Below are positions 27,348-45,943 of a stretch of DNA of 64,000 nt, in pieces. The stretch is from the NCBI RefSeq assembly GCF_021246445.1, contig NZ_JAJQXW010000005.1, positions 124,001 to 188,000 on the forward strand, in the 5' to 3' direction. The notes beneath the pieces are model-generated. The model saw only the letters and a list, made by a program, of their open reading frames with translations, did no database searches and had not been told where the DNA came from. This DNA comes from Rhabdothermincola salaria (GTDB lineage: Bacteria; Actinomycetota; Acidimicrobiia; Acidimicrobiales; Acidimicrobilacustridaceae). The position numbers were made by a program, and so were the translations under genes. Each line of letters begins with the position of its first letter. Position 1 is the first letter of the stretch.

Positions 27348-27426
<79 letters not shown>

Positions 27427-27482: not shown

Positions 27483-27503
27483 CTTCTAACGGATCTTCTA
27501 ACG
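27483..27503. repeat. Putative integrase arm-type sites (left)
   Basis: CTTCTAACG-GAT-CTTCTAACG, identical to 44012-44032. Confidence 0.75.
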
Positions 27504-27657: not shown

Positions 27658-29265
27658 GTGCGCATCAGCAGGCTGACGGTTTGCAATCACTTGGCGGTAC
27701 CTGAGATTGACATCGAGGTGCGAGAGCACCTCGTGCTCGTAGGTCCCAACGAGTCTGGCAAGACCTCATTGTTGAGGCTTCTGGATGGGATGCTGTGCGG
27801 GTCCCTTGGCAGGCTCTACGGCCTCATTGACGTCGGGGACCTACGAGACCCGAGCCGACCGATGACCTGCGAGATTGAGTTCAGGGACTTCACTGAGGAC
27901 GAGAAGGCATCCTTGCCGGAGCAGATCGAGGTGCTCCCCGACAGCGCTCAGAGATTGCGCCTACTGCTGCGTGCAACTCCGGATCCCGCTGGTGACGAAG
28001 TCGCCCTGGAAAGGGTGTTCATCAAGCCGGGTCTTGCGATTGCCGCTACTGCAGCGCACCTCGAATGCGTCGGTTGGACGCTCCTGCCTGCTGGAAGATC
28101 CCCCGATCGGGAGCTGGGGGCAGGGCGACGTAGCGCCATTGGTGGACTTCTCGGCTCCGTGGACCTCGGAGCTTCGCTCTCAGAGATCGTGTCGGCGGTC
28201 GAGAACCTCCACGGCGTGGTCCATGACGCGCCTGCCTTGGTGAAACTCAGGGAGAGCCTGGCTTCCGCGCTCGGTGAACTGCTTCCGAGGGGTGTTGAGG
28301 CCGACGATCTCGTGCTCGAGCTTCCTCGCGCCGATGCCCACGCCCCACTCGCCGATGTCGACGTGAAGCTGAAGCACGGGACAGCGCCTCGTCCGCTCCG
28401 AGACCAATCGGACGGTGTCCGTGCCATGTCGACTGTCGCCATTCAACTTCTCGCAAGGGGTGGGGCCCGGATCATCGCTGTGGACGAACCTGAGATTCAT
28501 CTTCATCCACGCGCTCAGGCGCGAACAGGGTCGATGCTCCGCGACAAGGCCGGGCAGGCGGTCATTGCTACCCACGCTCCTGCTGTACTCACGCAGTTCT
28601 CCCCCATGCACGCTGTCGCGTTCGTTGGTGGCGCATGCCGGCAGCTCTCCGTCGAGCCGTTCCACGACGAACCGAAGGCGGCAGACCAGTGGTGGACGAC
28701 GCCGACGCTTGAGCCGCTCACCAGCCGGTGTGTGGTGCTCGTTGAAGGAGTCGCCGACCGAGTGATGGTCGAGGCATGCGCTATTGCACTTGGGTTCGAC
28801 TTCGATCGACTCGGCATTGTCGTTGCGGCCGTAAACGGCGCTGGCGGGTTCAAGATGGCCCTCCGGTTGTTCGGAGCCCAGGGCTTTGGCGTTCCGCTCG
28901 TCGGCCTGGTGGACCTGAGTGAAGCCGATGATGTGGCCAAGTACCTGGGAATCAATCGCTCGGAGGTGCCTGGAGCGGGATTCCTGATCTGCGACCCGGA
29001 CCTCGAGATGGAGTGCGTCCGGGGGTTGGGAGCGGAAGCCCACGCCAGACGCCTGATCGCGACGGGATTCTTCAAGGAGTCGGCTATCTGCGCTGGCAAC
29101 AGCGTGGCTGGTCTTGCCTCCCTCCAGAACGAGCCCTACGCCGCCTGGTGTCGCACTCGCAAGACCGAGGTCGCAGCGGCGCTAGCGTCCGAACTGACCA
29201 AGTCCGATGCATCGAGCCTTGAGGTCCTCGCCGCTGTCGTGGCCGATGCTGTGGCCAGGGTTTGA
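27658..29265 (+). CDS. OLD-family ATP-dependent nuclease (ABC ATPase + TOPRIM), GajA-like
   Basis: Walker A GPNESGKTS, 'QSDG' signature, Walker B 'AVDEPEIHLHP', 'ATHAP', TOPRIM 'VLVEGVAD'. Confidence 0.85.
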   Translation: MRISRLTVCNHLAVPEIDIEVREHLVLVGPNESGKTSLLRLLDGMLCGSLGRLYGLIDVGDLRDPSRPMTCEIEFRDFTEDEKASLPEQIEVLPDSAQRLRLLLRATPDPAGDEVALERVFIKPGLAIAATAAHLECVGWTLLPAGRSPDRELGAGRRSAIGGLLGSVDLGASLSEIVSAVENLHGVVHDAPALVKLRESLASALGELLPRGVEADDLVLELPRADAHAPLADVDVKLKHGTAPRPLRDQSDGVRAMSTVAIQLLARGGARIIAVDEPEIHLHPRAQARTGSMLRDKAGQAVIATHAPAVLTQFSPMHAVAFVGGACRQLSVEPFHDEPKAADQWWTTPTLEPLTSRCVVLVEGVADRVMVEACAIALGFDFDRLGIVVAAVNGAGGFKMALRLFGAQGFGVPLVGLVDLSEADDVAKYLGINRSEVPGAGFLICDPDLEMECVRGLGAEAHARRLIATGFFKESAICAGNSVAGLASLQNEPYAAWCRTRKTEVAAALASELTKSDASSLEVLAAVVADAVARV

Positions 29266-30914
29266 TGGCGACGGTCGTGGATCCACCGTGGTACGAGACT
29301 CACGAACTCAGCTCGGCGTTGGTTCTCGCGCCTCCAGGATGCGGCAAGACCGAGAGCCTCGCTCGATGGGTCGAGTCGCTTGTCGACCGCGGCCTGGTCA
29401 ATTCGCCTAAGCGCATCCTCGGCCTCACGTTCTCGAACAAGGCCAAGGCGAATCTTCGAGCTCGCTTGAAAGCCCACCTCGGTACCAGGTGGTACCGCCA
29501 TGCCCTCGTAACCAACTTCCACGGGCTGGCATACCGGGTCTATCAGCACCATGCGGGCGCAATCGGGCGTGTGCCGCTAGAGATAGCGCCTCAACGAGGG
29601 TGGCTCAAGGGCTTCACCAACGGGATCGTCAAGTCCACCGGATGTGACTCGGCTGAGCTCGCCTGTGTGCTTCGCTCCGCCAAGTGCGGACCGTTCGATG
29701 ACGAGCAGGTGTTGGCGCGGCTCGAGGCCGCCGGGCTGCACGCTGCGATGGAGTACGAAGCGGCGCTTCGGGCGCAGAACAGGGTGGACTTCGACGATGT
29801 GATTCGCTTGGGCCACCTGACGCTGGCCCACCCCGGGGTCCAGGACCTATATCAGTCGAGCTTCACAGCGGTCATCGTTGACGAGGTGCAGGACCTTTCT
29901 CTTGGCCAACTGGAACTGGCCCGCCGCATCGGTGGAGGGCGATCAGTGTACGCAGGCGACCTTGCGCAAGGGATCTACGGATTCGCAGGAGCGGAGCCAA
30001 TTGCCGTCCTTGAGAGCATCCGGGTCGAGGTGGACGCTGAGTATCGACTTGAGTCTTCCTATCGCTCATCGCCTGCAGTCCTGCGGGCCGTCAGCTCGGT
30101 GTCGAGGGAACTTGGAGGAGCAACCGTTCTCTCCGCCATCCCCGATGAGTGGAGCGATCGAGGGACCTTCAGGATTCTCCGCACGCGGCACGTGCTCGCC
30201 GAGGCTGAGGTTGTCTCGGAGCTGGTTGCCGGCTGGGTTAGGGCGTTCCCGGCTGACTCTGTAGCGGTCATCGCTCGCACGGCGTCGCGGCGGCGTGCCC
30301 TCGACCGGGCGATCGACGAGTCGGGTATCGCTGCGGAGATCTGGGACTTTCCTGCGCATCGCCCCCTCATTGCTGAGCTCTTGGCCCGTCACCTCGAGCT
30401 CGCCCTGCTCGTTGGGGATCCGCCCTTGGCATTGCAGGAGCTCTACAGCCGGTGCCTGGTGGACCTCGACGAACAGGACCTCGACGCCCTCGACGAGCTA
30501 CAGGAGGCTCTGGAGGCCATCGAAGAGCTGGTGGGGGAGGGGTACTCCCTGGCGGATGTGGTTTCGGGCATCCGGGTGTCCTCGGACCCCGATGCTCCGG
30601 TCGGCCCGGGTCTGCACCTCTTGAACGGGCATCTCGGCAAAGGTCAGCAGTTCGACCGGGTGGTGGTCCTGGGCTTGGAGGAGGCGATCCTCCCTCACTA
30701 TGCGGCGATGCTCGCTGAGCGATCTGGGGATCGTTCCCAGATCACCGAGGAACTCGCGGTCCTCCACGTGATGTTGTCGAGAGCTCGAGAGGATCTCGTC
30801 GTGACCGTTGCGGACGTCGTTCCGAAATGGAATGGGCAGGACATGGATCGGACACCAAGTCGCTTCTTGACGTTGTTGACGGCCGAGGCCGACGAGGTGC
30901 TTGATCGGCGTTAG
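29265..30914 (+). CDS. UvrD/SF1 helicase, GajB-like
   Basis: APPGCGKT, LTFSNKA, VDEVQD, GDLAQGIYGFAGA, SYRS, KGQQFD; TGATG coupling to upstream gene. Confidence 0.87.
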   Translation: MATVVDPPWYETHELSSALVLAPPGCGKTESLARWVESLVDRGLVNSPKRILGLTFSNKAKANLRARLKAHLGTRWYRHALVTNFHGLAYRVYQHHAGAIGRVPLEIAPQRGWLKGFTNGIVKSTGCDSAELACVLRSAKCGPFDDEQVLARLEAAGLHAAMEYEAALRAQNRVDFDDVIRLGHLTLAHPGVQDLYQSSFTAVIVDEVQDLSLGQLELARRIGGGRSVYAGDLAQGIYGFAGAEPIAVLESIRVEVDAEYRLESSYRSSPAVLRAVSSVSRELGGATVLSAIPDEWSDRGTFRILRTRHVLAEAEVVSELVAGWVRAFPADSVAVIARTASRRRALDRAIDESGIAAEIWDFPAHRPLIAELLARHLELALLVGDPPLALQELYSRCLVDLDEQDLDALDELQEALEAIEELVGEGYSLADVVSGIRVSSDPDAPVGPGLHLLNGHLGKGQQFDRVVVLGLEEAILPHYAAMLAERSGDRSQITEELAVLHVMLSRAREDLVVTVADVVPKWNGQDMDRTPSRFLTLLTAEADEVLDRR

Positions 30915-32068
30915 GTCGCTTTCTCGCTGAACATTGCCTCGCCGAATACCCGAGCGGCCTCGGCCTGCATGCCTGGGAGGACGTGCTGGTAGACGGTCAT
31001 GGTGAAGGCGGGGCTGCTGTGGCCGAGGCGTTCGCTGACGACCTTCACCGGGACGCCGGCCTTGAGCAGGATCGTTGCGTGGGTGTGGCGCAGGTCGTGG
31101 AGGCGGATCCTCGGCAGTGACGACTTGGCCAGGTGACGCTCGAAGCACTGGCTGACGTAGTCGGGGTGGATCGGCTCGCCGTCGGGGCGGGCGAACACGA
31201 AGCCGTCCTCGCTCCACCGTCGGCCGGTCAGCTGGTGCTCGGCGATCTGCGTCTTCCGCCACGCTCGTAGAACGTCGACTGTCCGAGCGTCGAGGTCGAC
31301 CATGCGGCGGCCGGTCTCGGTCTTCACGTCGCCGAGGCGCTTCTCGTAGGCGACGTTGGTGACGGCCTGGTGGACCGAGAGGCGGGCGGCGTCGAGGTCG
31401 ACGTCGCTCCACTGGAGCCCCAGTACCTCGCCACGGCGCATCCCGGTGTGGGCGGCGAGGTGGAACGCGGTGCCGAGCGGGTGGTCCTCGATCTCGGCGA
31501 GGAACTGGCGGAGCTGGGCGGCGTCCCACACCGTCATCGCCGAACGTCGACGCACCCGCGGCGGGTCGGCGAGGCCGGCCACGTTGCGCTGGACGGTGCC
31601 CTTGCGGCAGGCGTCGGCGAGCGCCTTGTGCAGCATGCCGTGGATGTTCCGCACGGTCTTGGGGGAGAGCCCTCCACCACCGCCGTTGAGCCGGCCCTCG
31701 GTGAGCAAGTCGGCGTAGAAGCCCTCGAGGTCCTCGGGGGTGAGGCGCTGCAGCGGGATCATCCCGATGCGGGGGAGCACGTGGGAGTTGATCGTCTGGC
31801 GGTACGAGGCGTAGGTGCTGTGGCCGACCTGGGTCTTGCGGACAGGGAGCCACCGCTCGACGAGGTAGTCACCGAGGGTGATCCGCTCGGGGGAGCGGTA
31901 GTCGCCGTCGTGCATCCGCTTCACGAGCTCGGTGAGCACCCGCTCGGCTTCTCGGCGGGTGGCGCCGCCCTGGTACCAGCGGCGGCGTTCTTTGCCGGTG
32001 GCCGGGTCGGTGCCCTCGTAGACGACGGCGTAGTAGCGGTTGCCCTTCTTGGCGACGTGGCCTCTCAC
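30911..32068 (-). CDS. Tyrosine recombinase/integrase
   Basis: TGMRRGE, VKT, LHDLRH, LGH, VY catalytic set; N-terminal arm-binding-like segment; AGGAGGAG RBS before GTG 32068. Confidence 0.95.
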   Translation of the reverse strand: MRGHVAKKGNRYYAVVYEGTDPATGKERRRWYQGGATRREAERVLTELVKRMHDGDYRSPERITLGDYLVERWLPVRKTQVGHSTYASYRQTINSHVLPRIGMIPLQRLTPEDLEGFYADLLTEGRLNGGGGGLSPKTVRNIHGMLHKALADACRKGTVQRNVAGLADPPRVRRRSAMTVWDAAQLRQFLAEIEDHPLGTAFHLAAHTGMRRGEVLGLQWSDVDLDAARLSVHQAVTNVAYEKRLGDVKTETGRRMVDLDARTVDVLRAWRKTQIAEHQLTGRRWSEDGFVFARPDGEPIHPDYVSQCFERHLAKSSLPRIRLHDLRHTHATILLKAGVPVKVVSERLGHSSPAFTMTVYQHVLPGMQAEAARVFGEAMFSEKAT

Positions 32069-32394
32069 GGCTCCTCCTGGCGTGCAGCCACGACCGGTCC
32101 GCTCGTCAGGGGACGACGGTCGAGGCGCCGACGTCGTCGAGGGCGTGCCTGGGCGAGGTCGGATCGGGTTGGAGGAGCACGTCGCACCGCAACCGGCCCG
32201 TGCTCGAGGCCGTCCACTTCGGCGGTGAGCCGATTGTGGCCCGGCATCTCGAGACGGTCCAGCGGCCACGGAGGCGGGGGAGTGGCCCACAGTCTCCGAA
32301 GGACGCGACGCCAGCGGCCGTGGGGAGTGGGATCAGGAGGGGAGGGCCGTCGAGCGCGTCGACGCCCGCCGTCACGGTCACCAGGAGGCCACCC

Positions 32395-34236: not shown

Positions 34237-37059
34237 ATGACCCAGGCGGATTCTTCCTACGTTCCTCCGGAGCAGCGCGCCCGGCAGCGGATCGACGCCA
34301 TGCTCGAAGCCGCCGGTTGGGTTGTGCAGGACTACAAGGCGATCAACCTGTACGGGGGCATCGGTGTGGCCGTGCGAGAGCTCGTGACGACAGCGGGGCC
34401 GGCGGACTACGTGCTGTTCGTGAACCGCCAGGCCGTCGGGGTGATCGAAGCCAAGAAGCAGGGCACCACGCTTTCCGGTGTGGAGTGGCAGACGGTCAAG
34501 TACCAGACCAACGTGCCTGACGCTCTTCCCTCGTTCCTGATCGACGGCCGGCTGCCCTACGGCTACGAGTCGACCGGTGAGGAGACGTGGTTCACCTGTC
34601 GCCTGGACCCGGAGCCGACCTCTCGTCGAGTGTTCTGGTTCCATCGTCCCGAGACGCTCGAGTGGGAGATCGAAGGCCAGGTCGACCACGGCGGCGGCAC
34701 GTTGCGGGCCCGCATCCCCGCCATGCCAGAGCTCGTGCACGATCCGGCTCGCCTCCGGGATGCCCAGTTCGAGGCGATCACCAACGTCGAGGCGTCGCTG
34801 AAGGGCAACCGCTCCCGAGCACTCATCCAGATGGCGACAGGGTCGGGCAAGACGTTCGCCGCGGCGAACATCTGCGAGCGGCTCATCTCCAACGCTCAAG
34901 CCAAGCGCATCTTGTTCCTCGTCGACCGCGGCAACCTGGGCGAGCAGACGCTCAAGGAGTTCCAGGGCTTCGAGGTCCCGGGCTCGGGCCACAAGTTCAC
35001 CGAGCTCTACAACGTGCAGCACCTCACCCACAACAAGGTCGACTCGGTGGCCAGCGTCTCCATCGGCACGATCCAGCGGGTCTATTCGATGCTGCGCGGC
35101 GACGTCGAGCTGGCCGACGACATCGACGAACTGTCGACCTTCGACACCAGCCCCACCCGACCGGTCGAAGTCGACTACCAACCGGCGCTGCCGATCGAGG
35201 CGTTCGACGTGATCATCGTCGACGAGTGCCACCGCTCGATCTACGGGGTGTGGCGCCAAGTCCTCGAGTACTTCGACGCCTTCCTCATCGGGCTCACCGC
35301 CACCCCCGGCAAGCAGACCTTCGGGTTCTTCAACAAGAACCTGGTGATGGAGTACGGGTTCCCCCAGGCCGTGGCCGACGGGGTCAACGTCGACTTCGAC
35401 GTGTTCCGGCTCTCCACCGCCATCAGCGAGCAGGGCTCGACGATCGAAGGCGGACAGGGCTACGTCACCACCTTCCGCGACCGCGAGACCCGCACCGAGC
35501 GGCTCGAGGAGGTCGACGAGGACCTCACCTACGACGAGAAGGCCCTCGACAAGAAGGTCGTGGCCAAGGATCAGATCCGCACGGTCGTCCGGGCCATCCG
35601 AGACAACCTGCCGGCGATGTTCCCCGACCGTGAGCTCGATGAGCACGGTCGGCTGCGTCACATCCCGAAGACGCTGATCTTCGCCAAGGACGACAGCCAT
35701 GCCGAGGACATCGTCCGCATCGCTCGTGAGGAGCTCGGCAAGGGCAACGAGGTGATCGCCAAGATCACCTACAAGACCTCCGACGGATCGACTCCGAAGG
35801 AGGTGCTGCAGGCGTTCCGCGGCAGCTACTTCCCGCGCATCGCCGTCACCGTCGACATGATCGCCACCGGCACCGACGTGAAGCCGATCGAGATGGTCGT
35901 GTTCATGCGGATGGTGCGCTCCCGGAACTTCTTCGAGCAGATGAAGGGCCGCGGCGTGCGCACCATCGACGACCACGACCTGATCCAGGTCACCCCGGAC
36001 GCGCACCACAAGGACCGGTTCGTGCTCGTCGACGCCGTCGGGGTGACCGAGACCAAGCTCATCGAGTCCACCCCACTCGAGCGCAAGCGCGGGGTGTCGC
36101 TCGAGAAGCTTCTCCACCAGGTCTCCCTCGGTCAGATCAGCGAGGACCTCGTCTCGTCGCTGGCTTCCCGGCTGGCCCGCATCGACGTCCGCATCTCGCC
36201 CGCCGATCGCGACAAGATCGAAGCGGTTGCTGGTCATTCGATGAAGTCGATCGAGCACGGCCTCATCCGAGCCATCGACCCCGACGAACAGCTCGCTGCA
36301 GCTCGAGCCGCGGCCGGCACCAGCGAGCCGACCGATGCCGAGTTGGAGAAGGCCAAGAGGGTCCTGTTCGATGAGGCAGTCATGCCTCTCGCTGCCAACC
36401 CCGATCTCCGCGTCGAACTGGTCAACGTGCAGCGCAGCTTCGACCAGGTCATCGACGAGATCAGCATCGACACCGTCACCCGAGCGGAGTTCTCCGTCGA
36501 CGCCCGCGCCCGGGCCGAAGCCACCATCGACTCGTTCAAGGCGTTCCTCGACGAGCACAAGGACGAGATCACCGCGCTCCAGGTGCTCTACAGCCGCCCC
36601 TACGTCAAGCGCCTCACCTACGCCGACGTAAAAGAACTGGCCGATGCCATCAGCCGGCCCCCGCACCGCTGGACCGCCGAACGGCTTTGGGAGGCCTACG
36701 AGACCCTTGACGCTGCCAAGGTCCACGGCGCGGCGGGCACCCTGCTCACCAACATCGTCTCCCTCGTTCGGTACACGCTCGGCGTCGACGACGAGCTCGC
36801 CCCGTTCCCCCAGCAGGTCGAAGAACGCTTTGAGGCCTGGCTCACCCAACAGCAGAATGCTGGCCGGACCTTCACTGACGAACAGCTCGCTTGGCTCCGA
36901 CTCATCCGGGACCACCTCGCCGCATCACTGTCCATCGAGCCACGGGAACTGCTTGACCCGCCCTTCAGCCAGCACGGCGGCCTCGGCCGCGCCCGTGAGC
37001 TATTTGGTCACGATCTCGACGACCTGCTAGCCGACCTCGCCGAGACAGTCGCGGCATGA
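34237..37059 (+). CDS. hsdR: Type I restriction endonuclease subunit R (EcoEI/EcoAI-like)
   Basis: 'PADYVL...VIEAKK' nuclease, MATGSGKT, VDECHRS, GLTATP, 'FEQMKGRG', C-terminal 'PPFSQHGG'. Confidence 0.93.
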   Translation: MTQADSSYVPPEQRARQRIDAMLEAAGWVVQDYKAINLYGGIGVAVRELVTTAGPADYVLFVNRQAVGVIEAKKQGTTLSGVEWQTVKYQTNVPDALPSFLIDGRLPYGYESTGEETWFTCRLDPEPTSRRVFWFHRPETLEWEIEGQVDHGGGTLRARIPAMPELVHDPARLRDAQFEAITNVEASLKGNRSRALIQMATGSGKTFAAANICERLISNAQAKRILFLVDRGNLGEQTLKEFQGFEVPGSGHKFTELYNVQHLTHNKVDSVASVSIGTIQRVYSMLRGDVELADDIDELSTFDTSPTRPVEVDYQPALPIEAFDVIIVDECHRSIYGVWRQVLEYFDAFLIGLTATPGKQTFGFFNKNLVMEYGFPQAVADGVNVDFDVFRLSTAISEQGSTIEGGQGYVTTFRDRETRTERLEEVDEDLTYDEKALDKKVVAKDQIRTVVRAIRDNLPAMFPDRELDEHGRLRHIPKTLIFAKDDSHAEDIVRIAREELGKGNEVIAKITYKTSDGSTPKEVLQAFRGSYFPRIAVTVDMIATGTDVKPIEMVVFMRMVRSRNFFEQMKGRGVRTIDDHDLIQVTPDAHHKDRFVLVDAVGVTETKLIESTPLERKRGVSLEKLLHQVSLGQISEDLVSSLASRLARIDVRISPADRDKIEAVAGHSMKSIEHGLIRAIDPDEQLAAARAAAGTSEPTDAELEKAKRVLFDEAVMPLAANPDLRVELVNVQRSFDQVIDEISIDTVTRAEFSVDARARAEATIDSFKAFLDEHKDEITALQVLYSRPYVKRLTYADVKELADAISRPPHRWTAERLWEAYETLDAAKVHGAAGTLLTNIVSLVRYTLGVDDELAPFPQQVEERFEAWLTQQQNAGRTFTDEQLAWLRLIRDHLAASLSIEPRELLDPPFSQHGGLGRARELFGHDLDDLLADLAETVAA

Positions 37060-38444
37060 CGCTTCGCGTGCACCCGGATGAGATCGTCGCTTCCTCCTCG
37101 TCACCCCTTCTTGGTGTCGCCCCATGGTGGGAGCGAGCTCGACTCGGTGACCTGGTCGAGGTGACGAACGGGGCGGCATTCAAGTCCGACCTATTCAACA
37201 ACGACGGCGTAGGGGAGCCGCTCGTCCGAATCCGTGACGTTGGTCGGGACTTCACCCAGGTGCACTACGCGGGGCCGTTTGAGGAGCGCCACGTCATTGG
37301 TCCTGGGGACATCCTTGTCGGCATGGACGGCGACTTCCGGGTAGCCCCCTGGCTTGGCCCGCGAGCGGTACTGAATCAGCGAGTCTGTCGGCTCCGCGTG
37401 CTCGATCCCAGTACCTACGACGAGCGCTTTCTCCTCCTCGTTCTGCAGCCGTATCTGGACGCGGTACACGCCGTAACTTCTGCCGTCACCGTCAAGCACC
37501 TGTCCTCCCGCACGATCGAGGACTTGCCGATTCCCCTGCCTCCGAGAGCCGAGCAGGAGAAGATCGTCGCAGCGCTCGACGAACGCCTCTCTGGCATAGA
37601 CAACGCAATCCAAGCGCTGACGCGGGCCCGAGTCCGTCTTAGTCAGCTTCGCTCGCAGCTCGTCGGAGCAGTACTTGGTCTGTCGGGCGCGCCGAACCTC
37701 AATGACGACGATCCGTCGGTGCCACTACCGATGGGTTGGCGTTGGGTCCGAGCATCAGACGCGTGCGAGATGGTGTCCTCGGGGAGCACTCCGAAGGCCG
37801 CCGACCTCTATCCCGACTCTGGCGAGATCCCGTTCATCAAGGTCTACAACCTCGGATTCGATGGCAGATTGGACTTCGCCATCAAGCCCACGTTCGTCAC
37901 GAGGAAGACACACGAATCACTGCTCCGCCGCTCGCGGCTACGTCCGGGCGACGTACTGATCAACATTGTCGGACCGCCGCTCGGGAAGCTCTCGGTGGTG
38001 CCAGATGACTATCCCGAATGGAACATGAACCAGGCTGTCGCGGCATTTCGTCCGCGCCCGATCCTCCGCAGCGAGTTCCTCGCGTACCTCTTAATGGATC
38101 GAATAGTCGTCGATCCGCTGTTGCGGACGGGGAAGGCCACGGCCGGACAGATCAATCTGAACATATCGGCCTGCCGCCGGCTCTGGCTCCCTGTGCCTCC
38201 GGCCGAGGTGCAGGCCCAGCTGGTCAACCGACTCGATGCCGCGATGAGTTCGTGGACGTCCGCTCTTGATCAGGTGAATGCTTCGAGCTCAAGAGGTCAC
38301 GCCTTGCGTCGGTCGGTCCTCGCTGCAGGGTTGTCGGGACAGCTCGTGCCTCGGGAACAAGATGACGGTTCGGCATACGTGCCGCTCGAGCGGAGGCGGC
38401 GGGTGGGCTTGGTGAAGCGCAACCGGAGGGTGAAGGCGTCGTGA
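37056..38444 (+). CDS. hsdS: Type I R-M specificity subunit
   Basis: Two TRDs with conserved 'IPLPPRAEQEKIV', 'LPMGWRW', 'PVPPAEVQ', 'SGQLVP'. Confidence 0.92.
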   Translation: MTLRVHPDEIVASSSSPLLGVAPWWERARLGDLVEVTNGAAFKSDLFNNDGVGEPLVRIRDVGRDFTQVHYAGPFEERHVIGPGDILVGMDGDFRVAPWLGPRAVLNQRVCRLRVLDPSTYDERFLLLVLQPYLDAVHAVTSAVTVKHLSSRTIEDLPIPLPPRAEQEKIVAALDERLSGIDNAIQALTRARVRLSQLRSQLVGAVLGLSGAPNLNDDDPSVPLPMGWRWVRASDACEMVSSGSTPKAADLYPDSGEIPFIKVYNLGFDGRLDFAIKPTFVTRKTHESLLRRSRLRPGDVLINIVGPPLGKLSVVPDDYPEWNMNQAVAAFRPRPILRSEFLAYLLMDRIVVDPLLRTGKATAGQINLNISACRRLWLPVPPAEVQAQLVNRLDAAMSSWTSALDQVNASSSRGHALRRSVLAAGLSGQLVPREQDDGSAYVPLERRRRVGLVKRNRRVKAS

Positions 38445-39922
38445 GCGACACCAAGGTGATCGTCGACAAGTTGTGGAACTATTGCGACATCCTTCGGGAT
38501 GACGGCCTGTCGTACGGCGACTACCTGGAGCAGTTGACATACCTGCTGTTCTTGAAGATGGCCGAGGAGCAGCGGGAGCTCGGGCTCGATCGGATCATGC
38601 CAGAGGGCTACGACTGGCCGTCGCTGCTCGGCAGAAAGGGCGAGGCGCTCGAGGCGCATTACATCGCGATCCTCAACCACCTCGGCGGCACCGACGACCT
38701 GCTCGGTGTCATCTTCCGCAAGGCCCAGAACCGCATCCAGGACCCGGCCAAGCTCGAGCGATTGATCAAGGATCTGATCGGCCAAGAGACCTGGATGACC
38801 CTCGGCGCCGATGTGAAGGGCGACGCCTACGAGGGCCTGCTTGAGCGAAACGCGGCTGACACGAAGTCCGGCGCCGGGCAGTACTTCACGCCGCGTGCGT
38901 TGATCTCGGCGATGGTCGACGTGATGCAGCCGAGCCCGGACATGCGGATCTGCGACCCGGCCTGTGGCACCGGCGGTTTTTTCCTCGCTGCGTTCGACAA
39001 CATCGTCCGCAACAACCCGAACCTCGATCCCGACCAGAAGCGGCACATCCGCTCGGGCCTATTCACCGGCTGGGAGATCGTCGACAACACCGCCCGCCTG
39101 TGTGCGATGAACCTGCTGCTGCACGGCATCGAGTCACCTGAGTCGGACAGCCCGATCCACGTCGACGACGCCCTGCGGGCCGACCCGGGTGAGCGGTTCG
39201 ACATGGTGCTCACCAACCCGCCGTTCGGAAAGAAGTCGTCGGTCCAGATCGTCACTGCCGAGGGCAAGGCCGAGCGGCAGAGCCTCACCGTGGTGCGTGA
39301 TGATTTTTGGGCGTCGACGTCCAACAAGCAGCTCAACTTCGTCCAGCACGTGAAGACCCTGCTCAAGGTCGAGGGCACTGCCGCTGTGGTGGTACCCGAC
39401 AACGTGTTGTTCGAGGGCGGCGCCGGCGAGACCATTCGACGCAAGCTGCTCCACGAGTGCGACGTCCACACGCTGCTGCGCCTGCCGACCGGGATCTTCT
39501 ACGCCCAAGGTGTGAAGGCCAACGTTCTGTTCTTCGACCGCAAGCCCGGCTCCGACACCCCGTGGACCGAGGACCTGTGGATCTACGACCTGCGGACGAA
39601 CAAGCACTTCACCCTCAAGACCAACTCCCTCGCGCGCGCTGACCTCGATGACTTCGTCGAGTGCTACAAGCCCGGCCACCGTGGCAAGCGGGAGGAGAGC
39701 GAGCGGTTCCATCGCTTCAGCTACGACGAACTCATCGCTCGTGACAAGGCCAGCCTCGACATCTCCTGGCTCCGCGACGAGAGCCTCGAGGACACTGACA
39801 ACCTTCCGGCCCCCGGTGTGATCGCCGCCGAGATCGTCGAGGACCTCCAGGCCGCCCTCGAGGAGTTCACCGCCCTGGCTGAATCTCTCCAGGCCATCGG
39901 CGTCGACGTCGAGGAGGCGTGA
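38441..39922 (+). CDS. hsdM: Type I R-M N6-adenine methyltransferase
   Basis: 'GQYFTPR', 'DPACGTGGF', NPPF, 'LRLPTGIFY'. Confidence 0.95.
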   Translation: MSDTKVIVDKLWNYCDILRDDGLSYGDYLEQLTYLLFLKMAEEQRELGLDRIMPEGYDWPSLLGRKGEALEAHYIAILNHLGGTDDLLGVIFRKAQNRIQDPAKLERLIKDLIGQETWMTLGADVKGDAYEGLLERNAADTKSGAGQYFTPRALISAMVDVMQPSPDMRICDPACGTGGFFLAAFDNIVRNNPNLDPDQKRHIRSGLFTGWEIVDNTARLCAMNLLLHGIESPESDSPIHVDDALRADPGERFDMVLTNPPFGKKSSVQIVTAEGKAERQSLTVVRDDFWASTSNKQLNFVQHVKTLLKVEGTAAVVVPDNVLFEGGAGETIRRKLLHECDVHTLLRLPTGIFYAQGVKANVLFFDRKPGSDTPWTEDLWIYDLRTNKHFTLKTNSLARADLDDFVECYKPGHRGKREESERFHRFSYDELIARDKASLDISWLRDESLEDTDNLPAPGVIAAEIVEDLQAALEEFTALAESLQAIGVDVEEA

Positions 39923-40949: not shown

Positions 40950-41480
40950 ATGACAGTCGAGAGACCGGAACGCCAGGCACCCGATGGGTCAGTGGGACCG
41001 AGTCGGAGACCCGAGCACGCCACCGTTCGTGTCGTCGTGGGTGAACTGAGCGCTGACGTCGATGCCGGGCTCGCCGGCATCATCGAAGGGATCTGGCGGC
41101 TCGGCATACCAACTCGCGCCTGCTGTGAAGGCGGCATCACAGCTGCGGCCGGCGCTACCCGCGAGAACCGGGCCTACATCTCCTTCGACACGGCTGAGCA
41201 GCTGGAGAGGTTCCTCGACCTCTTCGATGCGACGCGCCTGTCGGAGCACAGATGGCAGAAGTTCGACTGGTCGGATGGGCCGGGTAGCACCGTCGTCGAA
41301 CTGGAGCCGATCGGCTGGCGATACGACATCAGCGTTCGCCGCCCCATCCCCGGGATCCGCGGGATGCAGGTCGGTGGCAGCGTTCGCATTCCGGTGGGAG
41401 ACCTCGCCGAGATCGAGTCGGTCCTGGTGACGATGCTGGCGGAACGCGATGCCGCACCTCCGGAGAGGGCACTGCTCTAA
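40950..41480 (+). CDS. Hypothetical protein
   Basis: AAGGAG RBS; 'VDAGLAGIIEGIWRLGIPTRACCEG...AYISF'. Confidence 0.6.
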   Translation: MTVERPERQAPDGSVGPSRRPEHATVRVVVGELSADVDAGLAGIIEGIWRLGIPTRACCEGGITAAAGATRENRAYISFDTAEQLERFLDLFDATRLSEHRWQKFDWSDGPGSTVVELEPIGWRYDISVRRPIPGIRGMQVGGSVRIPVGDLAEIESVLVTMLAERDAAPPERALL

Positions 41481-42166
41481 CCGGTCGCATGGGGTGAACG
41501 GCGAAACCCCGGCGATGTGCCGAGGGCAGGGATCGTTCCGGGGTCTTGGGGTTGCCACGATACCGGTGTGAGCGGAGCCCTAGTCTGGATTAACTGTGGA
41601 AGTGGCTGGGGGCGTCCAGCGGACTTGTCCACCTAGCTCCAGGGTTCGGCTCATGCCTGAGTTCGAGGAGGTCGGCGTCGTACCTCCAGGCAAGCGGCTC
41701 GAGGTACGACAAGGGCGACGATCGGTAAGAGCGCGTGGCAGGGGAGGTGGCACGGGAGTTCGGTTTCCGTCGGCTCAGGTCGAGCTCGCCGCTACCGTCG
41801 GGCCGACAAGGAGGTCCGAGGCGTTGCGTCCCAGGGGAGGGGGCGCGGCTTTGCTGCCGCTTTGATGCAGTCCGTAGTGATTGGGCCCCTGCTTCGTTCA
41901 GCCGCTGCGCTGGGTCACGAAGAGGGCGGGCAGACGCTTCTGGGCCGCTAGGCAGGCGGGCCGGGGGCTGAGAGAAGGGCGCGGCTGTGCAATCTCGACT
42001 GACTCCCGTGGCCTCTTAGTTCTGCGCCACCATTGGGTGAAGCTCGCATCGCTCGAGGCAGCGCGTCCCTGTGCGACAGTTGTGCTATGGGAATTCGTGG
42101 ATCCGCTGGCGATCGGATTGGCCGGCAGGCGACGTCGGATCGCTATGCCGGTACCCTGGTCGGGCC

Positions 42167-42703
42167 GTGAACGAGAACCAGCCGGAGACGCCGTCGAAGG
42201 CCCCATCGGTTTCTAGGGCCAAGGCCGATCTATACCGGCTCGCGTACACCGAGAGCCGGGCGAGAGTCCACGACCAGACCGAAGAGTTGTCCACGATGAA
42301 GCAGCGGGCGGTTCAATTCGTGGCGTTCATTGGGGCTTCTACGGCCTTCCTGGTCGGGTCTGTCGTCGGTAATTCCGGGTCCATTGGTGCGGGTGGACAG
42401 ATTCTCGCCGGAGTCGCGACCGTTTTTCTTATCGGGATGCTCGCGTCACTCACGCTGTTGTTGTGGCCGGGCAAGTGGTCCCTATCCGTCCAGGCGCAAC
42501 CCCTCCTGACTGATTGGATCGATTCCGATATTCATCCACCCGGACCAGCGATCTACAAGGAGCTTGCTGAGGAGGTCGATAAGAAGGCGGACGGAAATGA
42601 GTTGGAGCTTGGGCGGCGACGCTGGCTCTACGTGGCGGCAATTCTCTGCGGGATGGGCCAACTTGCGCTGTGGATCGCACTCGGATGGTTGACGCTTAGC
42701 TGA
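42167..42703 (+). CDS. Three-TM membrane protein resembling Pycsar/SLATT-type effectors (start uncertain)
   Basis: N-terminal helix, two adjacent TM helices, soluble loop, 'N...RRRWL' then terminal TM; A/T-richer codons. Confidence 0.55.
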
Positions 42704-42734
42704 GTTGCGGGCGAAACAACTACAGTGCCGGTCC

Positions 42735-43916
42735 GTGTCGGACCCCGATCGCCCATCTCCGGATGCCCGTTTCCCGTTTCGTCGGAGAGATACACCGCCT
42801 CCTCCTCCTCCTACGCCTGCGCCTCCTGAGTCTGAGCCGAACCCCTCGACTCCGTCAGCGCCAAAGCCGGCAAGGCGTACCTTCATCCCCGAGACACCAC
42901 GGGCAACAGCCTCGCCAGCTGTAGTGACGATGAGCCAGTTGCTTGAAGCTGGCGTGCATTACGGGGGCTCGACCCGCCGCTGGAACCCGAAGATGAAGCG
43001 CTTCATCCACGGTGAGCGCAACGGTATCTACATCATCGACCTGCAGCAGACGCTGGGTCGCATCGAGACCGCCTACGTCTACGTGCGCGACCTGGTCGCC
43101 GATGGCGGCACGATCCTGTTCGTCGGCACCAAAAGGCAAGCTCAGGATTCGGTGCAGTTCTATGCCGAGAAGTGCGGGATGCCCTACGTGAACGAGCGCT
43201 GGCTCGGCGGGATGCTCACCAACTTCCAGACGATCTCCAAGCGTGTGGCGAAGATGAAGGAGTACCTGCGCATGCGGGACTCCGGTGAGTTCGAGGCGAT
43301 GCCCAAGAAGGAAGCCCTCCTCATCTCCCGTGAGCTCGAGAAGCTCGAGCGCAACCTCGGTGGCGTCCGCAACATGGAGCGCCTGCCCGACGCGGTCTTC
43401 GTGCTCGACACCAAGAAGGAAGACATCGCGGTCACGGAGGCCAACAAGCTCGGTCTCCCGATCGTCGCCGTGGTCGACACCAACTGCGATCCCGACATCA
43501 TCCAGTACGTCATCCCGGGTAACGACGACGCCATCCGCTCCGCCAACCTCATGGCCCGTGTGGTCGCCGATGCCGTCGAGGAGGGCCGGTTCATCGCCTC
43601 GCGTAAGCGCGGCGCTGCGGCCGATGCCGCCGCTCCCGCCGTGCAGGAGCGCAGCGCCGAGGAGGTGGCCGCCCACGAGGCCGCTCAGGCCAAGGCCCGC
43701 CGTCAGGCCGCCGAGGCCGCGGCCGCCCGCGATGCCCGCATCGCCGCCGAGCAGGCCGAGCCGGCCCAGTCCGCGGAGGAGACCGAGGCCCTCGCCGCCG
43801 ACCAGCCCACCGAGGCCGGCCTCACCCCAGAGAACGTCGAGAACCTCGAGGCCGACGCCGAGGCTGCCGGTCAGGGCGCCGCCGAGAACCTCCGCCCCCG
43901 CCCAAAGGAGGCCTGA
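42735..43916 (+). CDS. rpsB: Ribosomal protein S2 homologue with Pro-rich N-terminal extension (island-borne)
   Basis: '[14 protein letters not shown]', 'TRRWNPKM', 'NGIYIIDL', 'LFVGTK', 'RWLGGMLTN', 'VDTNCDPD', 'PGNDDAIRS'; GTG 42735 follows TACAGT. Confidence 0.9.
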
Positions 43917-44011
43917 CACCTGTGGCTGGTTTCAATGCCCTGGTTCGCTTACCGCATGATCCGATGACTGGTGTTGCCGACACGCGATCTGTTCGTGTTG
44001 GCGGTCATGGG

Positions 44012-44032
44012 CTTCTAACGGATCTTCTAACG
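44012..44032. repeat. Putative integrase arm-type sites (right)
   Basis: CTTCTAACG-GAT-CTTCTAACG identical to 27483-27503. Confidence 0.75.
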
Positions 44033-44149
44033 AACGGGCCGATATGACCCGGAACTGACGCAATCGGGTTGATGGCAGCAGCCCACGAAACCCCAGGTCA
44101 GGCGCATGATCCGGCATTCAGCGGTATCCGCCGACATGGGCCTTGGCTA

Positions 44150-44197
44150 GCTCATAACCCGAAGGTCGCAGGTTCAAATCCTGCCCCCGCCACCAAC
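44150..44197 (+). repeat. attR core (48-bp duplicate of tRNA-Met 3' half)
   Basis: Identical to 27379-27426; lacks tRNA 5' half. Confidence 0.95.
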
Positions 44198-44212
44198 TTC
44201 CGAGATGTCGGC

Positions 44213-44248
44213 TCGAGAACCCCCCTGCGGTGGGGTTCTCGACGTTTT
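44213..44248 (+). terminator. Probable original tRNA terminator displaced by island
   Basis: TCGAGAACCCC...GGGGTTCTCGA stem followed by CGTTTT. Confidence 0.65.
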
Positions 44249-44618
44249 CGGGGTGTTTCACCCGTTTCCCCGGGCTGCGGTGCGGATCTCTCGGGTGGTT
44301 CGGGGCTACGACCCGACGCAACTCTCGACGGGTCGTTCATCGACGACATGACGGCCACCGAGGTGTACCAGATCTGCTGCCAAGGGCTGTTACCCACAAC
44401 GAACCTGGGATGCCGAGACTGGCCTGGATGGTCGACCATCACCCCAACGAACCATTCGGGGAGCTCACCCACCAACCCTCATCGCCGCCCGGCGGACACC
44501 AACCGCAGCGGACACCGGCCCCAACCGTGGGGGGTCTGTTGGCATGGAGGACCGACGATGAGCTGACGGAGACGGCGCAGCTCCTGCTCGCCGCCGAGGC
44601 GACGTCGACGCAGCGTGC

Positions 44619-45179
44619 TCACTCCCTCCAGTACTCCGGACGGTCCATCGCCGTCGCGCAGGCCACCCTGCCCCGGAGCCGGCCGATGCAGCCCGGCTTC
44701 AACTCCTGCACCATCCAGGCGTCGGCGACGTCGTCGGGGATGGGGTAGGGCGCCTCGAAGCCGAGGACACCGGCCGGCCGGAAGCCGTGGCGGGGGTAGT
44801 AGTCGGGGTGCCCCAGAACGAAGACGAGGTCAGCACCCGCTCGGCGCAGGGCATCGAGGCCCGCCTCGATCAGCCGGCCGCCGACGCCCTGGCTCTGCGC
44901 GTCGGGAACCACGGCGAGGGGTGCCAACAGGAAGACGACGGGCTGACCTCCTTCCGTCTGAAGGTGTCCTTTCGTGAACAAGATGTGGCCGACCGGACGA
45001 TCCTCCCGCAGGGCGAGCAAGGACACCCAGGGTGCCGCTGTCGGGTCGACGAGCAGGTTCTCCACCAACTCGTCGATGGGCTCCGCGTCGAACGCCGCCC
45101 GTTCGATGGCGAGGACCTCGGCGAGATCTGCCGGCTCGGCGTTGCGGATCACGGTCGGCGGGGTCGGCGGGTCGTTCAT
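44619..45179 (-). CDS. GNAT N-acetyltransferase (YhbS-like)
   Basis: 'VGHILF', 'LAPLAVVPDAQSQGVGGRLI', 'VLGHPDYYPRHGF'. Confidence 0.9.
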   Translation of the reverse strand: MNDPPTPPTVIRNAEPADLAEVLAIERAAFDAEPIDELVENLLVDPTAAPWVSLLALREDRPVGHILFTKGHLQTEGGQPVVFLLAPLAVVPDAQSQGVGGRLIEAGLDALRRAGADLVFVLGHPDYYPRHGFRPAGVLGFEAPYPIPDDVADAWMVQELKPGCIGRLRGRVACATAMDRPEYWRE

Positions 45180-45493
45180 GTCGTGAGCTTCGCGTGCCCG
45201 CGCGTGAGGCGGTTGACGAGCTGACCACGCATCGGCCGACCCGGCTCGCGTGCTCCGGGCACCCATCGGCGCCGATGCTTGCGACGGGTGCTTCCGCCAC
45301 TCTCTTCGTGGAGGGCTACGGAGCACCCCCCTCGGAGCGAACTGTGCACGTCCGAGTGACGTCAGCGGAACGCGAACACTGCGTCGAGCGCGCTGCCGTC
45401 ATCCGCCTCCGATGTCGCCTCGTCGACGGCCGGCGCGTTGCGGTCGTCGACTGCGGGAAGCACGGAGAGTCAGCAGGGGCTTCGCAGGGCCCT

Positions 45494-45943
45494 TCAGTCG
45501 GGCGATGACACCCCGGCCGGCAGCACGCCACCGGCGGCGATCCATCGCCCGAACACCTCGGCTCCCTCCGTGGGGTTGTACAGGTCCTCCTGGTAGGAGA
45601 ACTGGCCGTCGCCGGCGTACTCGAGGATCGTGACGCATCCGAAGCGGAAGTCCTCCCCCTGCCCGGTGGGGTGGGGGAGGACCTGCCAGGGGTAGTACAC
45701 GACGCGGTTGCCCTCGACGACGACCCACTCCACGGGGAAGGTCATGGTCGACGGGGCCTGGGCCATCACGTCGACGATGGCGCGCCTGATCGCCTCTCGA
45801 CCCTCGAAGCGCCCGAGGTGGTGCTCCACCCAGACGCCGTCGACCGTGTGCAGGTCGGCCCAGGCGTTCCAGTCGCCGCTCTCGCCCACGGCCACGAACT
45901 GGTCGTAGGCGGCGCGGACCTCGGCCTCGTCGAACGTCGTCAT
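45494..45943 (-). CDS. SnoaL/NTF2-like protein
   Basis: 'WNAWADLHT.DG', 'FEGREAIR', 'EYAGDGQFSYQEDLYN'. Confidence 0.85.
   Translation of the reverse strand: MTTFDEAEVRAAYDQFVAVGESGDWNAWADLHTVDGVWVEHHLGRFEGREAIRRAIVDVMAQAPSTMTFPVEWVVVEGNRVVYYPWQVLPHPTGQGEDFRFGCVTILEYAGDGQFSYQEDLYNPTEGAEVFGRWIAAGGVLPAGVSSPD

Follow-up and report, generated by a model that had tools for sequence, protein, structure and literature searches.

In the 64,000-nucleotide (nt) stretch of Rhabdothermincola salaria DNA analyzed here (the window), an integrative defence island carries a second gene for the ribosomal protein uS2 (S2). The gene lies at 42930–43916 on the forward strand, encodes 328 amino acids (aa) from a conserved internal Met and matches both PF00318 and TIGR01011. 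It is well supported that this is a genuine, intact second uS2 gene, that it is a recombination mosaic and that it occupies a variable cargo slot on the attR side of the island. As to what it does, we tentatively favor, at somewhat less than an even chance, an expressed uS2 variant whose S1/zinc face is disabled and which would act on the 30S subunit or, less likely, as a free decoy.

A second uS2 gene with a changed loop

The open reading frame (ORF) that contains the S2 domain (42705–43916, forward strand, 403 aa) is complete, with neither a stop nor a frameshift. Its residues 79–294 matched the Pfam model Ribosomal_S2 (PF00318) over the whole profile, positions 1–216 of 216 (E 4.4e-95; 317.5 bits against a cut-off of 26.1), and the NCBIfam model of bacterial rpsB (TIGR01011, cut-off 76.3) gave 326.6 bits for the island copy and 344.2 for the canonical one. 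The initial annotation of this DNA had described a full-length S2 inside attachment (att) repeats, and the complete PF00318 match and a perfect 48-nt direct repeat bear this out.

The host genome (7 contigs, 3.9 Mb) contained exactly two S2 matches, the island copy and a copy on another contig, C3. The names borne by close homologues point to a host within the Acidimicrobiia/Acidimicrobiales. The two proteins share 92% aa identity over residues 1–320, including a long Ala/Glu-rich tail, and the genes share 91.5% nt identity. The C3 gene encodes 339 aa from a start of its own; an M23 peptidase gene precedes it, and EF-Ts (PF00889, E 1.3e-45) and, further on, RRF follow it. With EF-Ts downstream, this locus is the normal rpsB-tsf operon, present elsewhere in the genome, and the island copy is consequently not the sole rpsB, a point that the initial annotation had wanted checked. 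The DNA homology of the island copy to the canonical rpsB runs from ~42918 to the stop codon, with nothing beyond on either side; no tsf follows, as had been noticed at first sight. The rpsB-tsf context, an initiator ATG of its own and a Shine–Dalgarno (SD) sequence are all three present in the canonical locus and all three missing from the island copy, which differs further from canonical uS2 in its location on an integrative island and in the loop described next.

Which part of the protein sets the island copy apart? Where the S2 proteins of 30 relatives read GVHFGHQ (29 of them) or GVHCGHQ (one), so that GHQ is kept in all 30, the island copy reads GVHYGGS, exactly the change that the initial annotation had picked out. 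The relatives' N-termini follow the pattern M(A/S/T)(P/A)VVTM(R/K) and 12 further residues with minor variation, from which the 20-residue N-terminus of the island copy departs. On the other hand, the second change proposed earlier, from KKEHIA to KKEDIA, is not special to the island copy, since the host's own canonical S2 reads KKEDIA too, as do the seven close homologues that were inspected.

uS2 is the docking platform of S1, and S1 governs the choice of mRNA at initiation. The host S1 gene encodes a DIGYKSEGVIP loop in its first OB domain, which would correspond to E. coli Lys43. In alignments to solved ribosomes, E. coli numbers were higher by 5 throughout, which places Tyr16, Gly18 and Ser19 in the island copy against Phe16, His18 and Gln19 in the canonical copy. 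In the crystal structure of S2 with S1 (Byrgazov et al., PMC4288201), a Zn2+ ion on S2 is bound by His18, Asp188, Asp204 and Asp205 at the S1 interface; Lys43 of S1 contacts Asp188, Asp205, Asn203 and Phe16 of S2; and His15 of S2 packs on Phe9 of S1, His15 and Phe16 being part of the S1 contact. The statement in the initial annotation that His18 belongs to a zinc pocket at the S1 interface was therefore right. What the uS2 zinc pocket does is a question that the authors of this structure raise themselves. The island copy thus lacks the otherwise invariant GVHFGHQ loop with His18 and has lost one of the four zinc ligands, the His18 equivalent. The remaining residues of the zinc/S1 face are unchanged (H15, D188, N203, D204, D205 and R208), the other three ligands, D188, D204 and D205, among them.

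Mosaic structure and selection

Selection was evaluated over a 226-codon core (678 nt), with changes polarized by seven outgroups. The island and canonical copies differ by 50 synonymous and 19 non-synonymous changes, with a synonymous distance (dS) of 0.42, a non-synonymous distance (dN) of 0.037 and a dN/dS of 0.088. The ratio, which the initial annotation had proposed to determine, falls within the range of 0.08–0.17 found for orthologue pairs of the host and its relatives. The dS is close to that between the host and its congeners (0.31–0.38) and above that between the host and other genera (0.24–0.33). In a tree, the island copy joined the host copy weakly (support 77/83), with an end branch of 0.094 compared with 0.011 for the host copy.

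After polarization, the island branch carried 24 synonymous changes and 13 non-synonymous ones. Outside codons 1–14, the counts were 18 synonymous to 7 non-synonymous on the island branch and 10 to 5 on the canonical branch, which, together with a dN/dS inside the orthologue range, indicates no relaxed constraint in the body of the gene. In those columns where no more than two of the other 30 rows deviate, the island copy shows seven private replacements (F11Y, H13G, Q14S, F51Y, K69R, S77F and I146V), whereas copies from the same genus and the closest genera have between zero and two.

The divergence is unevenly spread. A diverged 5′ patch (42918–42971, forward strand) encodes 18 residues, with Tyr, Gly and Ser at E. 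coli positions 16, 18 and 19. A second diverged patch with AT-ending codons (43131–43165, forward strand; codons 68–78) encodes K69R, P74S and S77F and contains synonymous changes as well. The Ala/Glu-rich C-terminal tail (43691–43885, forward strand) is nearest to the resident canonical rpsB. In terms of identity to the canonical gene, 42917–42976 reached only 67% and the 60 nt that follow 97%; 43097–43156 fell to 78%, most of 43157–43576 stood at 92–98%, the linker dropped to 75–78%, and the tail at 43697–43876 rose again to 95–98% (60-nt windows).

We called a base private to the island copy when it was absent from eight close canonical genes. There are 29 such bases, and 16 of them fall within codons 1–14 and 68–78, which make up 75 of the 678 nt. 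Eleven lie in the first 42 nt alone, a count that was reached in none of 2000 permutations. Codons ending in A or T mark both patches, and GC-to-AT changes account for 17 of the 29 private ones. Of the first 18 codons compared, 12 carry synonymous and 5 non-synonymous differences, which indicates that the 5′ patch, too, evolved as protein; its non-synonymous changes strike F16, H18 and Q19, residues that are otherwise invariant or nearly so. The first 38 nt of the island S2 are 84–87% identical to S2 genes of other families compared with 67% to that of the host. In one multiple alignment, identity of the tail to the host copy was 0.845; for either copy of the host genome set against a relative's gene, the comparisons listed ranged from 0.64 to 0.76. 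Over its last ~10 codons, the island S2 is scrambled against the canonical tail by small indels.

The simplest account of this mosaic, as read from the sequence, is recombination among S2 genes, in which a foreign, lower-GC, S2-like 5′ end, with the DNA upstream of it, would have been joined to a genus-type rpsB. The first 14 codons and the second short patch, codons 68–78, most probably derive from a much more diverged, lower-GC, S2-like source, one without the initiator Met and with Tyr-Gly-Gly-Ser in place of the Phe-Gly-His-Gln of normal S2. The 3′ end appears to have been most recently converted by, or copied from, the resident rpsB. Two other sources of the 5′ patch were considered and rejected. 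For a template switch, the segment 42700–42980 shares only chance 12-mers with the rest of the genome; for an S2 of the fusion type described below, 36 of 54 nt agree with the fusion gene of genome G652 and 35 of 54 with the host canonical gene, which gives no signal.

A possible change in the rpsB tail was also noted elsewhere. In two congeners, known from bins 75–77% complete (G002, contig C4, locus L022; G004, contig C5, locus L027), the sole rpsB changes frame after approximately residue 226, and the tail homology continues in a second frame; either both assemblies contain a frameshift or the change of tail is real.

The island and its variable cargo slot

The island is 16.8 kb long, sits at tRNA-Met and carries a tyrosine integrase, Gabija and a type I restriction-modification (R-M) system. 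Its integration target is a tRNA-Met (CAT) at 27348–27424 on the forward strand, found by ARAGORN as the sole tRNA in the window. The 3′ half of this tRNA forms the left att repeat (27379–27426, forward strand, direct repeat of 48 nt), and the right att repeat (44150–44197, forward strand), a partial tRNA-Met 3′ end, is 100% identical to it over the 48 nt. Between the repeats, GC content is 0.62–0.66 compared with 0.70–0.75 outside. The repeat of a tRNA 3′ end, the tyrosine integrase, the deviant composition and a cargo that varies among related islands are together the properties of a tRNA-targeting island. An empty integration site was not found in relatives: the right flank, 44198–45500, is unconserved in five of them, and no tRNA lies near the conserved part.

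A 21-nt repeat, CTTCTAACGGATCTTCTAACG, stands just inside attL at 27483–27503 (forward strand), with an exact second copy at 44012–44032 (forward strand) that starts 96 nt past the S2 stop. The motif is also present in the attR arm of the sister island of G003, and the repeats are likely arm-type integrase sites. S2 stops 96 nt short of the right-hand copy, so that no further gene of the excisable unit follows it.

The integrases of islands in two congeners, G003 and G001, are 93% and 88% identical to that of the present island. By blastn, the parts held in common with the G003 island at 74–87% nt identity are the tRNA/attL end, int-xis, hsdR, hsdM, the segment 41497–41573 and the attR arm at 44010–44197; hsdR and hsdM stand at 83–85%, and the short att repeat itself reaches 100%. 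Between the 77-bp segment 41497–41573 and the attR arm lies a block of 2.4 kb specific to this island (41574–44009, forward strand; blastn against the sister islands), which holds a membrane protein gene, a Pro-rich stretch and S2. In the same slot, G003 has 717 bp with a gene for an Abi_2-like protein (Pfam E 8.4e-5; 23.4 bits, just below the cut-off). Near its attR, G001 has a helicase-nuclease and a 771-aa protein, a cargo different from that of the present island, and between the tRNA and int it has a TIR-domain (CAP12/Pycsar-type) gene and a DUF3800 gene. With defence genes in the place of S2 in sister islands that have no S2 themselves, the S2 gene is cargo of the variable slot and lies outside the island backbone. 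The initial claim that S2 is carried as cargo on a defence island has thus held up.

Several further observations concern the slot and the sister cargo. The 77-bp segment, which is non-coding and 87% conserved with the G003 island, bounds the slot on the left and may serve in recombination or regulation. In the sister islands, the same two slots are filled with differing cargo of defence type; the loci are L067 (G003, contig C89, 645–1430, reverse strand), L066 (G001, contig C4, 2032–3899) and L065 (12725–17096). The G003 island carries Abi_2-like, MarR-like and DUF3024 genes, and in G001 a ResIII helicase/MTES_1575 nuclease adjoins the 771-aa protein, which has no Pfam match.

The rest of the island is made up as follows. 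On the forward strand, gajA (27658–29265; PADLOC GajA, E 2e-121; Pfam AAA_21/OLD TOPRIM) and gajB (29262–30914; PADLOC GajB, E 3.2e-123; Pfam UvrD) are adjacent, which identifies Gabija. The tyrosine integrase gene follows on the reverse strand (30911–32290; Pfam Phage_integrase, E 1.7e-24; Arm-DNA-bind_4 domain), and the type I R-M operon hsdR-hsdS-hsdM is on the forward strand at 34237–39922 (Pfam EcoEI_R_C/ResIII, Methylase_S and N6_Mtase). The remaining genes encode an HTH_17 protein, a DUF7662 protein, an OGG-like protein, two unknown proteins, a small membrane protein and S2. In the segment 39919–40949, a 4-nt overlap joins the DUF7662 gene to the end of hsdM, and the gene with the OGG-like glycosylase fold stands on the opposite strand right after the R-M operon; both may be accessory genes of the type I R-M system.

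The gene immediately upstream of the S2 frame (42167–42703, forward strand) encodes a small membrane protein of 178 aa from GTG 42167, or 210 aa from 42071, with three predicted membrane helices read from the sequence. It gave no match in Pfam, NCBIfam, PADLOC or with the PycTM hidden Markov model (HMM). In the ESM Atlas, the 178-aa protein came near clusters that are partly or wholly annotated as PycTM (feature score 0.95; structure TM 0.73/0.71), but the aligned part stayed under the bar for naming a family, and the likeness is consequently only a lead. Distant homologues (29% and 23% identity) were found in 2 of 400 other Actinomycetota genomes, and no S2-like ORF was among those listed in the 3.5 kb around each. 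The neighbor therefore resembles the PycTM effectors of Pycsar in predicted fold and language-model features, and the locus differs from Pycsar in that a scan of 13 island ORFs gave no match to a cyclase family and the neighbor matched none of the effector models; a pyrimidine cyclase next to a PycTM- or PycTIR-matching effector is not what is found here.

Possible function of the island copy

How might the island gene act? It would be translated from the internal ATG 42930 or, alternatively, as an N-terminally extended protein coupled to the stop codon of the upstream membrane protein gene. The product would be expected to fold as uS2 with the whole rRNA-binding body intact, and because this body is intact, it could compete with the normal uS2. 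Its S1-docking face would be disabled by the loss of the His18 ligand and the replacement of Phe16 and Gln19, and an N-terminal extension, if there is one, would protrude at this same face. Subunits of the 30S type that contain the island uS2 would then hold S1 poorly and shift which mRNAs they initiate. Less likely, the free island protein would meet a factor that normally targets uS2.

The observations that speak for such a variant are the intact frame, the ordinary constraint on the private branch and the clustering of the replacements on one functional surface, the rest of which is kept. So do the abundance of synonymous change in the diverged patches, the coincidence of the homology boundaries with the coding sequence, in frame with the upstream open frame, the location in a slot for defence cargo and the parallel with a family of S2 fusion proteins.

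On the other side stand the missing start signals, an extension that is not coding-like, the uniqueness of the copy and its absence from the sister islands. To begin with the start, the canonical GGAGGAG and ATG are replaced in the island copy by ..GCCTCGCCA GCT GTA GTG ACG ATG, so that the normal initiator position is Pro (..SPAVVTM compared with MAPVVTM). Direct reading revealed no SD-like run before ATG 42930, GTG 42924, GTG 42735 or TTG 42705. A promoter and terminator scan of 41400–44300 gave one promoter-like site within the S2 gene, none upstream and no terminator. Around ATG 42930 (−25 to +45), the predicted folding energy is −25.5 kcal/mol compared with −18.2 at the canonical start, i.e., the region is more folded. 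The 5′ patch taken alone, with six non-synonymous and six synonymous base changes, is only weakly distinguishable from neutral. The copy is also solitary. The degenerate pattern GVH[F/Y]GGxTRRWNP had no match in genome_contigs (two scans), in the IMG/VR viral contigs or in the JGI metagenome contigs; extra rpsB copies with the same substitutions, for which the initial annotation had proposed a search, were thus not found in these three collections, which leaves a one-off copy. Its protein cluster has one member, and the next best match is 90% identical; that match and the six other top matches inspected all have a canonical N-terminus. No second full-length S2 was found among 60 relatives, and the G003 and G001 genomes have a single S2 each, with none on either island. 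Lastly, a dN/dS this low could be a legacy of a donor rpsB, or gene conversion from the working copy could uphold it without any function of the island copy, and conversion from the essential copy can on its own keep a gene intact.

The stretch in front of the internal ATG deserves closer description. The S2 frame is open back to 42693, and its first start codon is TTG 42705, placed 1 nt after the TGA of the membrane protein gene, a spacing that would allow coupled translation. The resulting Pro-rich, in-frame open stretch upstream of the S2 domain (42705–42929, forward strand) has 75 codons. GC contents at the first, second and third codon positions (GC1/2/3) are 0.67/0.72/0.55 for this stretch, 0.61/0.37/0.90 for the S2 core and 0.61/0.50/0.71 for the upstream gene, and a GC3 of 0.55 is not coding-like for this genome, which likewise weakens the case for expression. 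The chance of 75 stop-free codons at the local base composition is ~0.11 by our own estimate, made without a tool. Among 300 genomes of the order, the stretch had no DNA relatives beyond short low-complexity matches. The initial annotation had read a Pro-rich extension through the position of the initiator Met. This stands insofar as the frame is open over 75 codons and Pro takes the initiator's place, but the stretch is only an open frame without coding-like GC, and the database protein record of the island S2 (P0001) starts at ATG 42930, with 328 aa.

Other features of this region were noted in passing. An inverted repeat, CCAGCT...AGCTGG (42914–42954), flanks ATG 42930 and could, in a folded mRNA, sequester the internal start codon. 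The idea that recoding of the 5′ end opens the mRNA at the start was rejected, as the start region is more folded and the value for the first 45 coding nt (−12.2) lies inside the relatives' range. The CCT repeat of the Pro-rich stretch (42796–42815) reads AGGAGGAGGAGGAGG on the minus strand, a strong SD-like run placed right before an ORF of 55 aa on that strand (42628–42795, GTG at 42795), which overlaps the end of the membrane protein gene; the run and the small antisense ORF may be due to chance. Rfam at E ≤ 1 gave two sub-threshold, chance-level matches in 41000–44400. The one DNA sequencing run found (0.05 of words) contained reads of other organisms that fall only on conserved parts of S2 and on the tRNA end and leave 42000–42923 uncovered; it bears on neither assembly nor expression.

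Nearly as likely as an active variant is a non-functional passenger: a piece of rpsB captured by illegitimate or homologous recombination and patched by conversion, which lost its start, its SD sequence and three invariant residues without selection and looks intact since it is young, repaired by conversion, or both. The missing start signals, the lack of a promoter-like site upstream, the folded start region, the uniqueness and the absence from the sister islands all fit this account, as do the non-coding-like GC3 of the Pro-rich frame, the scrambled last ~10 codons and the 17 private changes from GC to AT. The mosaic, moreover, shows that recombination with a working gene does occur. What it explains less readily is a frame without a stop or frameshift over 328 codons (403 with the extension) and a private branch that, outside codons 1–14, is no worse than the canonical one. 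The diverged patches themselves are rich in synonymous change, and the damage is concentrated on one functional surface, with the other zinc and S1 residues kept. Homology that runs from within the first three codons of S2 to its stop codon, in the upstream open frame, is also unexpected for a random breakpoint.

How unusual is a second S2 altered in this manner? Seven of the 60 relatives gave two S2 matches, which either overlapped or were parts of a single gene divided by a frameshift or a contig break. Of 400 further genomes of the class, 387 had an S2 match and 7 had two, of which 3 were inspected; this tally, like that of the 300 genomes searched in the order, takes in some genomes flagged as unpublished (G078; G565, G511 and G547), on which no specific claim depends. 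G523 has two near-identical S2 copies. The second S2 of G639, from a 430-contig bin, has a proteobacterial-looking N-terminus and is probably contamination. In G652, from the same order, the second copy is genuinely different: it is the C-terminal part of a fusion protein, P0121 (503–512 aa), which consists of an N-domain of ~235 aa, a Pro-rich linker and an S2 domain (PF00318, E 1.5e-81).

The N-domain of P0121 had no Pfam or PADLOC match, and its GC1/2/3 of 0.77/0.49/0.79 is of the coding type in frame. The S2 part starts QAVVSTRQLLTAGVHFGST, with both native Mets and His18-Gln19 gone. A second protein, P0249 (539 aa), which came from an exhaustive search of representatives, is 47% identical to P0121 over 451 residues (E 6e-131), N-domain included, and reads PVVTARELLDARVHLGGR, again without the native Mets and without His18-Gln19. 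In P0121 and P0249, respectively, the His18-Gln19 region reads GST and GGR, and R208 is replaced (GNDDSIT and GNDDGIV). Among 389 S2-like proteins, the best matches to our queries rather than a random selection, a residue other than His occupies position 18 of an alignable motif in just three: P0001, P0121 and P0249. P0345 and P0375 have no alignable motif. Of 401 class genomes, G652 itself was the only one to yield the N-domain; the JGI metagenome contigs yielded none, and a word-indexed protein search gave no further match. The fusion family is rare, with two known members.

The fusion proteins thus resemble the island copy in the loss of the native Met or Mets, in the same S2 start residue after a Pro-rich or Gly/Arg linker, in the replacement of His18-Gln19 and in a mobile or accessory context, with an IS1595 transposase near P0121. 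They differ in their ~235-aa N-domain, which is absent from the host, in the replaced R208 and in an S2 domain that is 54% identical to the island copy. In the host genome, tblastn of both N-domains gave nothing better than E 0.13. As there is no N-domain homologue and the 5′ DNA of the island copy is no closer to the fusion gene than to canonical genes, the loss of His18 and of the native start arose at least twice independently in S2 copies that stand outside rpsB-tsf. The upstream ORF was tried as a homologue of the fusion N-domain and rejected (BLASTP E 1.4).

In G652 (contig C73, locus L047, 6437–8706), a 252-aa P-loop NTPase-like ORF upstream overlaps the P0121 gene by 28 nt; GxxxxGKS P-loop-like and hhhhD motifs were read directly in it, and it has no homologue in the host genome. 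Genes for a dienelactone hydrolase and the IS1595 transposase lie downstream. Another protein, P0301 (504 aa), has an S2 domain with extensions of ~125 aa at the N-terminus and ~150 aa at the C-terminus; it keeps GHQ (MHFGHQ) and has lost the native start (PVVSLSQLI).

Could S2-derived proteins without the zinc/S1 hold be a recurrent building block of accessory, possibly antiviral, systems, including a two-gene cassette on the present island? We regard this as unlikely. On this view, an S1-blind uS2 and the PycTM-like membrane protein would form an abortive-infection pair, with the uS2 as its sensor or decoy: a phage factor directed at uS2, by attack or by binding, would be captured there and so set off the membrane effector. 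The fusion proteins, in which an N-domain is joined to a His-less S2 and which in G652 stand behind the P-loop NTPase-like gene, would be a second, independent version.

Much less probable is a zinc-sparing alternative uS2, swapped in under zinc scarcity. Zur-controlled, zinc-free paralogues are known in actinobacteria for S14, S18, L28, L31 and L33; S2, to our knowledge, is not among them. The likeness to the zinc-free alternative ribosomal proteins (AltRPs) of actinobacteria, such as those of mycobacteria (PMC6094098), lies in a second copy of a ribosomal protein without a zinc ligand of the primary copy, and His18 is indeed the sole zinc ligand in which the island copy differs from the canonical one. 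However, three of the four ligands are retained, the copy is non-recurrent, and it is borne on a mobile island instead of a conserved chromosomal operon. Furthermore, a search for Zur-box-like palindromes, which is a weak test here, gave none near the gene and just one match in the 64 kb, with three mismatches, inside gajA.

Least probable of all is an error of assembly in which reads from related rpsB genes were fused into a chimera, which would account for the mosaic identity profile but not for a gene inside a 259-kb contig with unique island sequence on both sides, with S2 homology unbroken across the boundary at 42971 and followed by the attR arm found at the same place in the sister islands; a base difference of 8.5% from the canonical gene also means that the copy is not a collapsed repeat.

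Returning to an active uS2 variant, the closest precedent for a ribosomal gene on mobile DNA comes from viruses. Virus-encoded ribosomal proteins are host-derived, under purifying selection and proposed to replace the cellular versions, and viral bS21 and bL12 were shown to enter ribosomes (Mizuno et al. 2019, PMC6375957). Those named include bS21, bL12, bL9, bL31, bL33, bS6, uS9, uS15 and HPF, and Supplementary Table 2 of that study, a list of all viral ribosomal proteins, may include S2. The island S2 is similar in being a host-type ribosomal gene on mobile DNA with a low dN/dS (0.088; private branch 18 synonymous to 7 non-synonymous), figures in which purifying selection after capture is inseparable from donor history or gene conversion; it differs in being on an integrative island and not on a phage. 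S2 matches were present in 13 of 50,697 phage records, several of them oversized or fragmentary, and in 63 of 72,556 plasmid records, where most of those listed are chromid-sized or larger. The titles and abstracts of a narrow literature search contained no bacterial S2 paralogue, which is not proof of absence.

What would either outcome mean? If the gene is inert, it clearly illustrates that a captured copy may be kept healthy-looking by gene conversion with an essential gene, which calls for caution in the use of dN/dS on extra copies. If it is active, this would be, as far as we know, the first defence island with a core ribosomal protein; we know of no earlier case, although no literature search was aimed at that question. 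A natural uS2 with an altered zinc pocket and S1 contact, present beside the normal copy in one cell and borne in a slot otherwise given to anti-phage genes, would be a ready-made experiment in ribosome specialization.

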